A DNA stretch of 31,611 nucleotides, taken from NCBI GenBank assembly GCA_031362565.1, contig JANLSU010000043.1, forward strand, positions 1 through 31,611, written 5' to 3'. Source of the stretch: a bacterium. Its GTDB lineage: Bacteria > Krumholzibacteriota > Krumholzibacteriia > G020349025. The position numbers were made by a program. Positions 1-6,000 of the stretch are shown piece after piece. Within the stretch, counting starts at the first letter, position 1. Each line of letters starts with the position of its first letter.

Positions 1-3000
1 GCTTGGTTAACGGGCTCGCGCATCTAATCATGCGCGCGAAGCGCGCGGCGCGGCCCGTTCTGTCTGAGTCGGCGGGGGGTCGCACACTCCCGAAGACCGC
101 CTCGCTCCAGCGATCCCTCCGAAACGGGCACAGGACGACGAAAAGAACCTCAAGCCGTGGCCGTAACCGCGCCTTCGAAGATCTTCATTTCGCCGACGGT
201 ATAGAAGCCGCGCTCCGACAGCAGCCGGATGAGCTCCAGCAGGACGCGCGCCGTTGCGTAGGCGTCGTCGTGGGCGCGGTGGCGGTGTTCGAGGGGAATT
301 CCCAGGTGGGTCGCGAGACTGTGCAGCTTGCGGCTGCCGGTCTTGGGATGAATGAGCCGTTGCGACAATTTCACCGTGCACAGATGCGGCAGAATGAACC
401 GCACACCGGTCGCCTGTTCGACCATCACCTTCAAAAAGCCGTAGTCGAAGGAGGCGTTGTGGGCGACGAAGATGCCGCCATCCAGAGCCGCCAGAATCTT
501 GGGCAGCAGTTCCTCGAGCGTCGGCGCGTCCTGCACCATGAGATCGTCGATACCGGTGAGACGCGTGATGCTCTGCGGGATCGGCCGCTGCGGATTGACC
601 AGCGTCGAGAGCAACGGCTCGGCAACTCCACCGCAGACGCGGAACAGTCCGATGTCGATGATGGCGTTGGTGGCCGGATCGCTGCCGGTCACTTCGAGAT
701 CGAGAACGCGGAATTCGGCTTCGGCAAGCGGCGAGTCGGCATAGCCGCAACTGATCGCTTCCCACAGACCGGCGTGGACCTCTTGGAAGCGCGTGTCGCG
801 CGCCAGCACCCGCCGGACGGCGCGCCGCATCTGGCGCTTGTCACGCACTTTGAGCTCGAGCACCCGGCTACCGATCAACGCCGAGGGCGTCGGCGCCGGG
901 TTGTCGTTGATGAACCGGTATGCCAGGTCCAGCTTGGCTGCCCGAGCTTCGGGATCCATGCCACCATCTCTCGAAGTCGGTCGCAGCGGGGGGTCGTCCA
1001 CGGCCGTCGCAGACCCCAATGGTACCCTTTATGACATCCCGGTGTCAAAAGCGGCGCGATTTGGCACGGATCGAAGCGCTGCGGAGTGGGGCGATTTGCC
1101 ACGACGAGGGCCGTGGTTTGTTCGGCGCGACCGGCTACGACTCGGGCCCCGATCACGGCCGCCGCGACTTGCCACGACTTGGGGCGCCCATGCCGAGCAG
1201 TTCCAGCGAGTACTCCCACGTGCGGGGCGAGCTCTGCGGCACGCCGGGAACCGGCTGCGAGAGGCTGCGTTCGCTGCGGACCGTCGCCGTGGCGCGAACG
1301 ATCCCAAGAATAGGTGCCTCGAGGTGCGTCCAAGTCTCGACGTCGCGCACCGCCGACTGGGTCATTTGCGCCGGGCCCAAGGCCTTCACCTGGCGGCTCG
1401 ACTCGTGGATCCGCCGCCCACGGCACTGGAAGGCACGCGCGCCAACGCGCAGCTCGCGGTCGGCGAGCACCGAATCGCGCCCCCCCGGCAGCGGCGGCGT
1501 GCGTTCGAGCCCGGGGATTGCGCCCCAGTCGTCCGGCCCGTAGTGGGTCGTATCGCGGCCGGCAATTTCCACGACGGAGCGTAGATGGTCGAGCAGCGAG
1601 CCGCCCTGGCCGCGAAAAAGCGCCGGCGCGACTTCGAGCCGCGCATCGAGGCTATCTCCGGCCGTGAGCTGCAAGTAGACGCTGCCATCGGGACCGGGAG
1701 CGATCCGCTGCACGCAGGCGTCGAATACGACTTCGCGCCTGCCCGCCGGCTCCTGGGCCGTGAAGCGGTAGTGGCCGCAAGCACCGACGCGCGGCGTGAC
1801 CGCCTCCAGGCCGCGCAGCAAAACTTCGAGCTGCGCCTGTGCCGGCCCCGCCACCGCGACGCACACCGCCACCAAAAGCAAACCGGCGCACGAGCGGTTG
1901 GAGCCGCTCGCGCGCCGGGGTTTCGAAAAGATGCTTCTCACGAGCCGGTATGCGCTCCGTGCGCCATTTTCGCCCAGTAACTCTTGAATTCGAAGTTCGG
2001 GCTGTTCTTCTGGTCGTGACAGACCGTGCAGGTCTTCGGATCCGGCTTCATGACGAACTTGGTGTCACCGTGCAACGTTCCATAGCTGTGACACTGTTCG
2101 CAGGACACGACGCCCAGTTCGGCCTGGGCGTTGGGATAGCCGGTAGGCTGGTTGTAGCCTGTCACGTGGCACTTGAGGCACTCGGCCGAGGACTCCATAG
2201 CCTTGGCCTCGAGTGACGCCATCGAGTGCGCGTGCTTGGTGTCCTTCCACGACTCGTACTCGGCTTGATGGCAGCGTGCACACATCATTGCGCCGATGAA
2301 CTTCTCCTGCGGGCCGCTGGCCGCCGACGCTCCCGCCGTGTTCGCCCCGACGACCTGCTCGACGGCCTCGCGCTTGCGCACATCCTTGAGGCGCTCCTTC
2401 AAGTCGTTCATCATGATCGTCGTGAGCGAGTCATCTTTGACGTTCTTGTCGAGCGCATGCATCTCGTGGGTGTAGCGCAAGATCTTGCCGTGCTCACTGA
2501 CCACCATCATGAGTGCACCGAGGTATTTGCCGCGCTCGCCGGCTTCGAGCACCAGGCTCTTGCCGCCGGTCGAATCGGAACCCACTTCGGTGACCTTGTG
2601 GTTGACGAAGCCGTCCATGCCCGAAATCGCCACGTCGATGCCTTTGACTTCGTCCACGAGCTGCTGTGATTTGCGTTGGCCCAGATGGGTGAACACCACG
2701 ACCACATCGGCCTTGGTGCGCACTTCCGGCAGCAGCGCCGCAACGGCTTCCTTGGGATCGAGGACGCTCAGATTGTCGCCGTCCGAGTTGTAGGGCGACA
2801 GGGCCTCGCCTTCCTGCATGACGCCGAGGAACGCGACCCGAATACCCTTCACGTTGCGCACAACGTAAGGATTGAAGACGAACTTCCCGTCCGCCTTTTG
2901 CTTGAGGTTCGACGACACCAGGTCGAGCTTGTCCTTGACCGCGAGGTCACGCAACGTCTGCACGCCCCAGGAGAGATCCGCCGGGGTGACGTTGACGGCC

Positions 3001-6000
3001 TCATACTTCATCGACCCCATGACATCCATGAGGAACAGGCTCTGCGTTTTTTGCGACTCCGCGGAGCCGCCCATGGCAAAGCCGCCACCCGACACCGGAA
3101 GCACGTTCGGGTGAGTGCCGCGATAGTTGTTGATCACCGTCGCTCGCCGAGCAACGCCGCCCATCCGGGCGGATTTTCAGCCACACTCTTCGAAGTCACC
3201 GCGATCGTCGCTCTGATACAGGAGCACGATTTCGGTTTCGGGTGCGGGCTTCATCGCCATTTGCTTCGGCTGTCCGCACGCATACGCGCCGGCGAGCCCC
3301 AGCAATGCGATCAACAACAACAGTCGACTCTTCACGTGTCGTCCTTTCGACGCATCAAGCGTTAGCGCTCGCCGTTGACTGTACCGCTACCGGCCGCCGG
3401 TTCGCAAGGGAGCGCAGCCCGCAGGCGAGCGCGAAATACCGTACCGGGCCGAAACGCGGCCGCCATTCCGGCCGGAACCACGATCGGTTGCTGCGTTTGC
3501 GGGTTGCGTGCCACCCGCTCGGCGCGCCGGCGCGTTTCGAAGGTGCCGAATCCAGGGAGTTGCACGCGCTCACCCCGTTCGAGCGCTTCTACAATGATAC
3601 CGGGTGCTTGGGTTCCGCCAAACAGCGCTTCAACAGCCCGCCGCGCGTTCTCGGCGCTCATGCCACCGCGCCGCGCAACATCAGTCACGAGATTTGTCTT
3701 GTTCATGTCTCCCCTTGTAGATGACATCGGCGTTCGTCTGGACTCCAAAAACGGCAGCAAGTTCGTTGCAAGTTCGTACCCGGCGCGGGTACCGCACCCC
3801 GGCGGAGCCGCAGACCTTGCCGGGTTGCCGGTGCTATGATCCGCGCACCCCGGGGCCCGCGCGACTCGCCCGCGCTGCCCGGTGGCCGCGGTCGCGGCTA
3901 CCGGTCTGCCGGATTCGGGCCTGCGCCCCGTGTGTGCCCGCATCGATGTTCCGAACCGGAGGATTCACCGCATGAAAGCGAGCCCGAGTGCGCCCGCGTT
4001 GGCTTTCGCGTCTCTCGCCGGAGGCCTGTGTCTCTTTGTTGCAACCGCATTTGCGGTGGTCGAACCCTCTGCCCCGAACCTCGACGTGCACCGGTTGCAG
4101 CCCGTCGAAGCGCTGCCGAAAGCCGCGACCCTCGCGGCGCGCGCCACACTCGAGCGCTCCCCGGCATGGATCTCGTGGAACCAGGCGCACCGCGATTGGC
4201 GCGTCACCTGGAACGAGCGCACCGGAACGGCGCACCGTCTTGTCGGTCCCGGCCTGCACACGTCCGCGTCGCTCACCCATAGCGCCGCAGTGGAATCCGC
4301 GTGCCGCGACCTCTTGAACTCGGCGTCCGGCCTGACCGGCGTTCGCCCAAGCGATTTGCATCTCCTGGCCGCCGACCACCGGCTCGGCCGCTGGTACGTG
4401 GTCTTCGAACAAACGGCGAACGGCATCCCGGTGCGCGGCGGCCGTGCCGACGTGCGCGTCACCGACCAGGGTGACGTGCTGCTCTTGGGCGCCGACTGGC
4501 ATCGCAACGTGACGGTACCGGCACACGCACTGGTTGGTGCGGACGCGGCCCTCGCGTCAGCGTCGCGCGACCTCGGCACCACACCCACCGACGTCAAACA
4601 TGAACTCGTCGTGGTGCCCGAGCCGCAAGGCGCGGGGTACACGTACCATCTCGCTCACGAACTGCATTTCCGCACCACGGAGCCGCTCGGCAACTGGCAG
4701 GCGTGGGTCGATGCCGAAACCGGTGCGCTTCTCGAGCGCGTCAACCAGGTGCGGTACGCCGATCTCACCGGCACGGTAACGACGCAGATCGAACCCATCA
4801 CCGTCGGCGATCCGCTGGTCGAACAACCACTCCGCGATACGCGCTTCAACGTCGGCTCGGGCGTCACGGAGTTCGGCTATACCGGCCCCGATGGCAGCTA
4901 CAACGTGACCACGGCGGCGACAGATTCCGTCAGCGTGCGGGTCCGCCTTTCAGGCCGCTTCGGCCGGGTGTTCAACCAGCAACTGGGGCTGGTCACTCCG
5001 GCCATCGACGCCCGCATGTTGCCCGGCTCGCCGCGCAATTTCGTGTGGAACGACAGCAATTCCAGGGCCAGCGAACGCGATGCCTACTATCATGCACTGG
5101 TCGCGCATCAGAACATCAAGACTTTGGATCCGGCATTCACGGGACTCGACTACACGATGCCGATCAAAGTCGACATCTTCGATCGCGAGTGCAATGCGTT
5201 CTACGACGGTTTGGGGATCAATTTCGAGCTCGAGAGCGCCCGCTGCGCGAACACGGCCCGCATTGCCGACGTCGTTCTGCACGAATATGGCCATGGCATT
5301 ACCGACCAGGTGTACCGGCCCTTGGCGCCCTCCGGGGCGATGCACGAGGGATTCTCGGACTACTGGGCCGCCACCATCATGGATGACCCGCGCATCGGCC
5401 GCGGATTCCGTGGCCCGGGCACCATCCTGCGCACCGTCGACAACACGCGCCGCGTGCCCGACAACGTCAACGGCGAAGTCCACAACGACGGCCTCATCAT
5501 CGCCGGCGCGCTCTGGGACCTGCGCCAGGCGCTCGGCAAGGCAACCGCCGACACCCTGTTTCACTACGCGCGCTATGGGCGCGCCGACAACTTCGACGAC
5601 TACCTGCTGGACGTCCTGGTGACGGACGACGACAACGGCAATATCTATGACGGCACGCCGCACTTCGACGCCATCGTGGCGTCGTTCTCGGTGCACGGCA
5701 TCGGCGACTACAGCGTGCAGATCGCGCACACCCCGGAGGCCGATACCGAGGATCTCCTCAAGCCGCTGACCATCGACGCGACGATCCTGTCGATTTTCGC
5801 CCTCGATCCCGCAAGCTTGCTGCTGTACTACCGCACGGATGGCGGCGGGTGGAACGAGCTGGCGCTGGCACCGGCCGGTGCCGGCGTCCGCGAGTTCGCG
5901 GCGACGATTCCAGCCCAGTCGGGCGGGACGCTTGTCGAGTACTACGTCGCGGCGGCCGACACCGCCGGACACATCGCCGTTGCACCGCCCGCCGGCTCTT

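Follow-up and report, generated by a model that had tools for sequence, protein, structure and literature searches.

The minus strand of the 31,611-nucleotide Krumholzibacteriota contig analysed here (the window) almost certainly encodes, at positions 3335..1938, a single exported selenoprotein in which UGA codon 53 is recoded. Sequence comparison places it clearly as an orthologue within NF041198, the catalogued family of UshA-like (seleno)proteins: both ends of the family model are matched, the family has full-length members, and orthologues from the phylum score above the cut-off. The case for recoding comes from the selenocysteine machinery of the genome, from a hairpin that is maintained by compensation and missing in the Cys forms, and from the Cys found at position 53 of relatives. 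The locus adds neither a new architecture nor a new system, since NF041198 in its standard form already has a c554-like tetrahaem domain on the C-terminal side of a 5'-nucleotidase-fold domain that carries C-x-U/C. For the locus as a whole, the best explanation, to which we give a probability of roughly 0.55, is an NF041198 orthologue with recoded UGA53 whose N-terminal domain would be a redox module wired to the haems.

A reading frame interrupted by UGA

The first-pass annotation proposed that g00714 and g00713 are one gene mis-called as two, and the frame bears this out. The two ORFs, 3177..3335 (52 aa, GTG start) and 1938..3164, share a frame in which the TGA at 3179-3177 is the sole separator; reading through it, from the GTG at 3335 to the terminal TGA at 1940-1938, gives a gene of 465 codons (1938..3335), whose 465-residue product contains E-C51-G52-U53-K along with four CXXCH motifs (C352, C386, C412 and C436). 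An AAGGA ribosome-binding site lies 6 nt 5' of the GTG, and residues 1-19 (3279..3335), ending in LAGAYA before a Cys, form a signal peptide as judged by eye; N-termini are hydrophobic in every aligned relative. The Cys51-Gly52-Sec53 motif occupies 3177..3185, its last codon being the TGA. C51, G52 and position 53 (U or C) are invariant in both the phylum alignment A1 and the cross-phylum alignment A4, Cys-form relatives have their Cys at position 53, and TGA follows C-G at the aligned position in 30/30 loci read. Of the longer consensus suggested earlier, hhYxSDxxGxIxxCGU, the CGU stood, whereas the 'SD' is not universal (Asp in 21/29 Sec forms); Glu replaces the Pro of 'PCGU' in the query and its closest relatives.

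The genome encodes selA, selB, selD and a tRNA-Sec (C62:773-869), and a SECIS-type hairpin of eight contiguous pairs (3138..3156, minus strand; loop GGC at 3148-3146) lies 22-40 nt 3' of UGA53, overlapping the G-V-A-R-R-A-T codons. On the 30 TGA-bearing loci, RNAalifold gives six pairs and a GG[A/C] loop. The eight-pair helix is paired in 92.2% of cells in these loci, a value that 0/500 shuffles reach, and sliding the hairpin partner by 1-3 columns lowers the paired cells to at most 52.2%. Pair 27-39 occurs as six pair types, pair 24-42 as GC (18), CG (6) and AU (5), and pair 30-36 as CG (24) and UA (5), the compensatory changes falling at synonymous sites. In the negative control of 13 Cys-form loci, the same helix is paired in only 57.7% of cells, and 53/500 shuffles reach that value. 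The SECIS-like hairpin noted in the first pass is thus kept by compensatory change in the 30 TGA loci and absent from the 13 Cys-form loci; an Rfam search of the element returned no family, only chance-level matches. The locus combines what marks a SelB-dependent selenoprotein, an in-frame UGA with a stem-loop 3' of it in a genome with selA, selB, selD and tRNA-Sec, and UGA53 is almost certainly recoded through the downstream hairpin by the genome's SelA, SelB, SelD and tRNA-Sec. The cytochrome-less paralogue reported at C6:75956-76951 is likewise real: it has PCGU, its TGA lies at 76094, and its hairpin keeps the register.

It is hardly credible that the locus is a pseudogene, or two genes as annotated with translation ending at the TGA. 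Gene callers do split it and the database mostly holds the 3' product (the 57 homologues counted earlier, mostly 343-414 aa and covering 69-87% of the query, were recovered with the same figures), but the 5' piece with its signal peptide, first strand and C-G is conserved in frame in 30/30 loci, relatives have Cys in place of the TGA codon, SECIS and selenocysteine machinery are present, and the 3' product alone would have no signal peptide despite its four haem c sites. At the level of sequence, conservation refutes this alternative.

Family identity and the tetrahaem domain

Scored with C in place of U, the query reaches 261.1-261.2 bits against NF041198, 5% short of the curated cut-off of 275; the score of 261 and its best stretch, residues 27-281 on model positions 15-269, were obtained again (261.1). 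Among the phylum orthologues, 20/26 score 275.3-306.8, at or above the cut-off, and 6/26 score 244-274.5; the three nearest, at 52-53% identity, reach 275.3, 284.3 and 287.9 bits. Scored separately, the N-terminal part of the query matches model positions 15-299 with 156.7 bits, and the C-terminal 135 residues match positions 399-519 with 95.3 bits. The reference members P0117 and P0166, with four CXXCH each, span positions 13-518 and 19-518 of 519 in a single stretch, and the family's Cys-x-Sec/Cys before a GG-x-ARRA helix is present in the query as E-C51-G52-U53...G59-G60-V-A-R-R-A. The claim of a new domain architecture therefore fails, as model positions 399-519 are the tetrahaem domain itself, and nothing has been replaced by a cytochrome within the PCGU family, P0117 and P0166 being full-length with four CXXCH; the architecture was called new because the best-scoring stretch, model 15-269, was taken for the entire match. 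What the query shares with NF041198 is both model ends, the position of C-G-U, export and the four CXXCH; it differs in scoring 261 bits (<275), in having E-C-G-U and not P-C-G-U, and in an inter-domain linker about 50-60 residues shorter than that of the 519-position model. UshA-like (seleno)protein family 2 (NF049981) has the scaffold and Sec loop in common with the query (E 5.5e-10, residues 38-128) but carries CxxU in place of CxU, its 262-position model has no cytochrome, and the query scores 39 bits against its cut-off of 140.

NF041198 is the family that Zhang & Gladyshev described in 2008 as 'COG0737, UshA-like, CxU' (PMC2398784), and it is listed in further reviews (PMC9312934, PMC13188914), whose tables give the entry by motif and family alone. 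Where it deals with the family, the 2008 paper separates UshA-like from the families with thiol-oxidoreductase-type motifs (PMC2398784).

The c554-like tetrahaem domain comprises residues 340-465 (1941..2318, minus strand; PF13435, NF041198 and PDB 1bvb), and the read-through translation places its CXXCH sites at 2282-2268, 2180-2166, 2102-2088 and 2030-2016. PF13435 matches with E 1.2e-13 and 52.2 bits (gathering threshold 20.8), the earlier Cytochrome_C554 call at residues 352-417 being reproduced, and the closest solved cytochrome in a profile search is cytochrome c554 itself (PDB 1bvb, E 4e-18). In the phylum and cross-phylum alignments, H368, H422, H459 and the four CXXCH histidines are conserved, seven for four haems, and the last conserved His is Cys in 2/11 cross-phylum members. 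In cytochrome c554, three haems are bis-His and one is five-coordinate. The AF2 model, built without haems, leaves the domain unplaced, with pLDDT <50 over 379-431. The tetrahaem domain, in the query with seven conserved His and four haems, is common to Nitrosomonas cytochrome c554 (PF13435; 1bvb/1ft5); compared with that protein, the query's is the C-terminal module of a larger one, and it scores 38.8 bits against the NF043010 cut-off of 400.

A degenerate nucleotidase fold and its possible role

Residues 27-330 (2346..3257, minus strand) form a degenerate 5'-nucleotidase/metallophosphatase-fold domain according to NF041198, AF2, Foldseek and profile search. The model of this domain has pLDDT mostly >90; the best Foldseek matches are CD73 and 5'-nucleotidases (E 5e-24), with UshA, 2z1a and 3ivd also matched, and the PDB profile search finds 7d0v_A (E 1.1e-30). 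UshA, CD73 and the Thermus 5'-nucleotidases (1ush, 4h2i, 2z1a, 7d0v) share this fold over ~313 columns (Foldseek E ~1e-20 to 5e-24), and the GG-x-ARRAT helix with it. By comparison, the query has lost the dimetal ligands, the catalytic Asn-His and the C-terminal nucleotide-binding domain, and has gained C-G-U and the haem domain. Pfam Metallophos gives no match on the query at E 0.1, nor does PF02872, the 5'-nucleotidase C-terminal domain, at E<=0.1, which the canonical relatives P0052, P0055 and P0056 carry.

The absence of the nucleotidase metal motif, previously judged by eye, holds up in an alignment of 144 CxC/CxU domains with six canonical enzymes. The Asn and the His of GNH are each found in 0/144 domains, the DxH His in 25/144 and the second GHxH His in 5/144. 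In the query, D43 and H218 are kept; R45 stands for the DxH His, G85 for the GD Asp, P-A for N-H and M-D-G for H-x-H; 5/7 ligand positions are missing. Neither within the phylum alignment nor across phyla does the domain have an invariant Asp, His or Asn, its only invariant positions being C-x-C/U and glycines. Roughly half of the members still carry the motif I/II Asp and the motif IV/V His, and an acidic residue, Glu or Asp, is frequent where canonical enzymes have the GNH Asn; given this partial survival, a remodelled metal site with Cys/Sec is possible.

That the protein is a redox protein and not a hydrolase is plausible. The N-domain would no longer be a dinuclear-metal hydrolase, and the reactive groups that it conserves would be limited to Cys51 and Sec53, located just behind the first strand in a loop that binds metal in homologues. 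The pair may act as a selenol/thiol couple, cycling between a selenenylsulfide and the reduced form, that trades electrons with the C-domain's four haems and, through these, with the electron-transfer pool of the periplasm; the likeliest substrates would be a disulfide, a persulfide, other oxidised sulfur or selenium species, or the thiols of a partner protein. We put this redox mechanism at about even odds. The redox reading gains indirect support from the loss of metal ligands and from fusions of the domain to c554-type cytochromes and thioredoxin-fold modules. At least three CXXCH are found in 20/102 CxC-bearing representatives among the best 150 of 7037 matches; the domain is also fused to AhpC/TSA-Redoxin modules in P0109, P0131, P0183 and P0191 (E 2.5e-14 to 1.6e-21), to DSBA/thioredoxin in P0108 (E 6e-13) and, less strongly, in P0105 and P0135, and to the OS_HP2 selenoprotein domain in P0099 and P0115, and in the P0049 lineage an exported thioredoxin lies immediately downstream in 2/5 long loci. 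TlpA/ResA and DsbA-type thiol:disulfide oxidoreductases offer a functional analogy only: they are exported, have a redox pair two residues apart or adjacent, and relatives carry such modules joined to their CxC domain, but their thioredoxin fold with CxxC is unrelated to the fold of the query, and their electrons come from DsbD/CcdA or quinones and not, as proposed here, from covalently linked haems. Counted against the redox reading are the separation of UshA-like from the thiol-oxidoreductase-type families in the 2008 paper, the partial survival of the metal-motif Asp and His, the strained ring of a C-x-C disulfide, the unplaced haem domain and the finding of no redox partner in the phylum neighbourhood. 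In the 82/102 CxC representatives that have no haem domain, electrons would have to enter by another way.

Cys51 and Sec53 could instead be ligands, either as sixth ligand or catalytic partner at one haem or binding a metal or metalloid where the dimetal centre used to be, with a small inorganic S, Se or N compound oxidised or reduced there; Cys ligates haem in TsdA- or SoxA-type haems. We consider this unlikely, although several observations speak for it: seven conserved His for four haems leave one without a conserved distal His, the nearest solved cytochrome has a five-coordinate haem, the last conserved His can be Cys (2/11), the motif I/II Asp and IV/V His are partly kept with Glu/Asp often at the GNH Asn, and 27/28 members have SoxB-family similarity. 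However, haem ligation cannot be the general role of the motif when 82/102 CxC representatives (best 150 of 7037 matches) have no haem domain, C-x-C/U aside there is no invariant candidate metal ligand, and the query resembles SoxB no more closely than it does other 5'-nucleotidase-family models. SoxB (TIGR04486; 2wdc) is of the same superfamily, periplasmic and active in sulfur chemistry (E 1.2e-21 and 2.2e-17), but its Mn ligands are not conserved in the query and its C-domain is another; with 76.6 bits against the TIGR04486 cut-off of 550, the query was rejected as a SoxB thiosulfohydrolase. More improbable still is the view that the protein has stayed a phosphoesterase or a SoxB-like hydrolase, its site being unusual and the cytochrome no more than a tether or regulator: the 5'-nucleotidase fold (E 5e-24), the conserved D120 at the GNH-D/E position and the JGI naming of relatives as '2',3'-cyclic-nucleotide 2'-phosphodiesterase (5'-nucleotidase family)' would fit it, yet the catalytic Asn-His pair is missing in 144/144 domains, the query is without 5/7 ligand positions and the C-terminal substrate-binding domain, and Metallophos does not match it at E 0.1.

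Distribution, neighbourhood and significance

The proposal that this is a core protein of the phylum is upheld: with a match threshold of E<=1e-10, the gene is found, as full-length homologues, in 121/121 sampled Krumholzibacteriota genomes. The gene for an exported 262-aa protein (1153..1941, minus strand), whose GTG overlaps the selenoprotein stop (GTGA), is probably co-transcribed with it; a homologous ORF lies immediately 3' of the selenoprotein in 56/59 other loci. Pfam assigns no family to 46/46 members of the 262-aa family, the AF2 model is all-beta (pLDDT 84), and there are weak LolA/LolB/RseB-like matches. Across the phylum, the neighbourhood holds HU, a DEDDh exonuclease and the LolA-like protein.

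The UshA-like family has been catalogued since 2008 and is present across many phyla. Both here and in the majority of the phylum's database entries, annotation breaks the gene at the Sec codon, and the haem-bearing product is thus annotated without its signal peptide and its sole conserved reactive motif. More broadly, we tentatively suggest that the C-x-C/C-x-U 'dead nucleotidase' domain may represent a class of periplasmic thiol/selenol oxidoreductase modules that has so far gone unrecognised, plugged either into a covalently bound c554-type haem wire, as in NF041198 proper, the form universal in Krumholzibacteriota, or into thioredoxin-fold partners. The loss of the nucleotidase catalytic residues from all members examined, Cys-x-Sec/Cys as the one motif that never varies, and the company of haem or thioredoxin-fold modules make the redox hypothesis directly testable in any cultured carrier. 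If the domain is such a module, it would provide a route linking the respiratory cytochrome pool with periplasmic sulfur/selenium or disulfide chemistry, bypassing DsbD/CcdA and DsbB.

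The gene and its decoding

On the minus strand of the window, a 52-codon open reading frame (3335..3177; GTG start, AAGGA ahead of it) is followed in the same frame by a long one that ends at 1938, and only the TGA at 3179-3177 stands between them. Translation across this TGA gives a product of 465 residues, with a hydrophobic N-terminus that ends in AYA followed by C, the selenocysteine motif ...LLYQSDDRGDFEE-C51-G52-U53-KSARMGGVARRAT... and four CXXCH motifs at C352, C386, C412 and C436. The first-pass annotation had described a single gene mis-called as two, and both the observation and the annotation fix that it implies are sound: its Cytochrome_C554 match at residues 352-417 was recovered, as were 57 database homologues, most of which are 343-414 aa long and cover 69-87% of the query, that is, begin after the TGA. 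Each of the 121 genomes of the phylum scanned holds a match (E<=1e-10). In each of the 30 loci read (L001 and L009-L037), the TGA directly follows Cys-Gly, and the frame upstream of it is open and codes for a signal-like peptide and a first strand; two separate genes are, as far as sequence can tell, excluded. The genome carries selA (501 bits), selB (350 bits), selD (384 bits) and a single tRNA-Sec (contig C62:773-869). SelD is probably a selenoprotein as well, because selD itself holds one in-frame TGA (C6:945-1859, locus L008).

The 60 nt from the TGA of the 30 loci align without gaps, and RNAalifold on this alignment gives a helix of six pairs, columns 26-31 with 35-40, closed by a loop GG[A/C]. 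For an eight-pair helix (24-31 with 35-42), 92.2% of 232 cells are paired, a value matched by 0 of 500 shuffles, and sliding the partner strand by 1-3 columns leaves at most 52.2% paired. Pair 27-39 occurs as six pair types among the 30 loci, pair 24-42 as GC in 18, CG in 6 and AU in 5, and pair 30-36 as CG in 24 and UA in 5; the variation falls on synonymous third positions and is not explained by coding constraint alone. Mapped to this gene, the conserved helix occupies 3156-3138 on the minus strand, and its loop, 3148-3146, reads GGC. The same helix was scored, as a control, in 13 loci from the phylum with Cys for Sec and equal spacing to GGL(G/S/A)RRA (L038-L047, L128-L130); there, 57.7% of cells are paired and 53 of 500 shuffles score as high. 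Rfam returned no family matching a SECIS element, only chance-level hits. A strong 6-bp GC hairpin, CCGCCC-GGAU-GGGCGG (window 3157-3172, minus strand), is peculiar to this gene, where it begins 5 nt past the UGA; it was rejected as not conserved among relatives, and the entire 86-nt fold reaches a z of only -1.19.

Family identity and the haem domain

Against NF041198, the NCBIfam model of the UshA-like (seleno)protein family (519 positions), the query scores 261.1 bits for a cut-off of 275, the best stretch being residues 27-281 on model positions 15-269, in agreement with the earlier figures. The claim of a new architecture, with the cytochrome 'in place of the nucleotidase C-domain', does not survive: the best-scoring stretch had been mistaken for the whole match. 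The first 330 residues match model positions 15-299 (156.7 bits), and the last 135, scored alone, match positions 399-519 of 519 (95.3 bits, E 3e-27). The genome also encodes a stand-alone tetrahaem cytochrome (L003), which matches positions 400-513. Two proteins of the database that combine C-x-C with four CXXCH, P0117 (542 aa) and P0166 (522 aa), match in single stretches, 13-518 with 358 bits and 19-518 with 372 bits. Because the end of the query, the stand-alone cytochrome and these single-stretch matches all reach the cytochrome end of the model, the curated family is, by profile comparison, the nucleotidase-like/tetrahaem fusion itself. Eight of the 18 haem-bearing representatives scanned pass the cut-off; among phylum orthologues, 20 of 26 pass (275.3-306.8 bits) and 6 fall short (244-274.5); the three orthologues nearest the query have 275.3, 284.3 and 287.9 bits. 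The query is a slightly low-scoring NF041198 orthologue with a shorter linker, an additional member of a known family whose own architecture is the one taken to be new. The cytochrome-less paralogue reported at C6:75956-76951 does exist: it holds PCGU with a TGA at 76094 and no cytochrome domain, has 331 codons and a lipoprotein-like signal, and carries a hairpin in the corresponding register; its NF041198 match spans positions 19-262 with 98 bits.

The family was described as 'COG0737, UshA-like, CxU', with 76 sequences carrying Sec and 92 homologues carrying Cys in GOS (Zhang & Gladyshev 2008, PMC2398784). Two reviews (PMC9312934, PMC13188914) tabulate it too, under NF041198 in the one of 2026 and under COG0737 in the one of 2022. 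In the portions of the 2008 paper and the two reviews that deal with it, we found no mention of haem or function for the family. Literature searches found no paper joining selenocysteine, multiheme and nucleotidase and none on selenocysteine in Krumholzibacteriota; among the matches listed for Krumholzibacteriota cytochromes, none is on this protein by title. Many public MAG records of the phylum stand under other labels in their titles, among them Fibrobacteraceae, Gemmatimonadales, Gemmatimonas and Latescibacterota (L052, L054, L084, L106 and others). A feature-based look-up of the Protein Atlas with P0166 gave, as leads only, clusters with the fusion in which Verrucomicrobiota, Acidobacteriota, Thermodesulfobacteriota, Bdellovibrionota and Planctomycetota are the most frequent phyla; one of these clusters is auto-named 'Cytochrome c554 and c-prime/Calcineurin-like phosphoesterase domain-co...', likewise a lead only.

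Residues 337-419 match cytochrome c554 (1bvb) in a PDB profile search (E 4e-18). Seven His are conserved in the haem domain for its four haems, as in cytochrome c554, so that one haem may be five-coordinate or have a foreign ligand. In two of eleven cross-phylum fused members, P0117 and P0175, the last conserved His (K-I-x-H, at the C-terminus) is a Cys, which may represent a His/Cys switch of the haem axial ligand.

The N-domain, its relatives and its neighbours

An AF2 model built on 28 aligned proteins (the window, P0049 and 26 other loci; of the full 29, L012, L021 and L033 were left out as truncated or near-duplicates) has pLDDT mostly >90 over residues 30-320 and low confidence in the haem domain. 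Foldseek retrieves 5'-nucleotidases, namely CD73 and the snake-venom, Thermus and E. coli enzymes (E 5e-24 to 1e-19, ~313 columns), and the PDB sequence profile search finds 7d0v_A (E 1e-30) and SoxB 2wdc (E 2e-17). The fold is thus common to the query and the CD73/UshA-type enzymes, but their catalytic residues are absent from the query. We aligned 144 CxC/CxU domains, comprising 29 Sec forms, 10 phylum sequences with Cys and a global set of 105 representatives (P0049-P0051 and 102 of the best 150 of 7037 matches), with six canonical enzymes, five from the database and the source genome's own 5'-nucleotidase on C123. The Asn and the His of GNH are each kept in 0 of the 144 domains, the His of DxH in 25 and the second His of GHxH in 5; the Asp of GD is kept in 68, the motif IV His in 85 and the first His of GHxH in 78. 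In the query, D43 and H218 are the only ligand residues left. Neither within the phylum nor across the eleven cross-phylum fused members is any Asp, His or Asn of the N-domain invariant; the invariant residues in both sets are C-x-C/U and glycines. The loss of the metal motif proposed in the first-pass annotation is thus borne out by alignment.

A HMMER scan with the N-domain returned 7037 proteins at E<=1e-3. Among the best 150 of these, 102 have C-x-C ahead of GG-x-(A)RR, 20 of them with at least three CXXCH and 82 with fewer (median 328 aa); 15, three of them haem-bearing, start right after the Sec position; canonical GNH(D/E) enzymes number 13 and other types 20. The CxC domain is joined to an N-terminal AhpC/TSA-Redoxin module in P0109, P0131, P0183 and P0191 (E 2.5e-14 to 1.6e-21) and to DSBA/thioredoxin in P0108 (6e-13) and, more weakly, P0105 (1e-4) and P0135 (5e-5); P0054 joins AhpC/TSA to a c554 domain, and P0059-P0061 (~1200 aa) hold two CxC domains and four CXXCH, P0059 with 376 bits on NF041198. 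P0099 and P0115 each unite an OS_HP2 domain (NF041425; 110 and 101 bits) with a complete NF041198 unit, so that a single polypeptide holds two orphan selenoprotein families. Beyond the phylum, a contig scan returned only same-phylum loci and a metagenome scan with P0166 no match; with P0049 it gave 8 loci of one lineage. In that lineage (metagenome loci L135-L141), DUF4159 lies directly ahead of the Cys-form gene in all five long loci, which are the basis of what is said here on gene context in other phyla, and an exported thioredoxin follows the gene in two of them (L139, L140). Large proteins lie upstream of DUF4159: the one in L135 has DUF4175, and no Pfam family matched the others that were scanned.

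Within the phylum, when the ORFs of the window were compared by blastp with 59 loci and their 6-kb flanks, HU was found upstream in 47, a DEDDh exonuclease downstream in 52 and an exported protein of ~250 aa directly downstream in 56 (single-linkage, E<=1e-5). Here, the latter has 262 aa (1941..1153, minus strand), and its GTG overlaps the selenoprotein stop (GTGA), an arrangement of translational coupling. None of 46 aligned members (the window and 45 of 51 usable loci) has a Pfam family; the protein is predicted to be all-beta (pLDDT 84), and its LolA/LolB/RseB-like matches are weak (Foldseek E 5e-4, TM ~0.3; VIA Z 8-9, near background). Divergently upstream of the HU gene lies window 3882-8675 (plus strand), whose 1597-aa product is exported and combines an InhA-like MAM domain with fn3 and, at its C-terminus, a FlgD-Ig-like domain. 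An unusually long LptD-like ORF, 1382 aa by first ATG, occupies 10241-14389 (minus strand) and has LptD_N/OstA and LptD_2 domains.

A possible redox role

Overall, our analyses establish that the gene encodes one exported protein with selenocysteine and four haems, which belongs to a catalogued family and has a phosphatase fold devoid of the catalytic residues. Selenocysteine is typical of redox sites. Because the motif is exclusively conserved, Sec is used in it, and the domain is repeatedly fused to electron-transfer and thiol-redox modules, Cys51/Sec53 would be the working centre and could form a selenol/thiol redox couple; the couple would pass electrons to and from the haem chain, itself perhaps linked to the periplasmic electron pool.

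The Cys/Sec pair may instead act at a haem or metal centre, a rival that stays because one haem is perhaps five-coordinate or foreign-ligated. A remodelled hydrolase, on the fold of the nucleotidases, is less likely. The protein as a stand-in for DsbD/CcdA draws no support from their absence, since a DsbD_TM gene (177.5 bits) is present. What deserves to be kept is the redox reading of Cys51/Sec53, which gives a long-orphaned selenoprotein family a hypothesis that can be tested.
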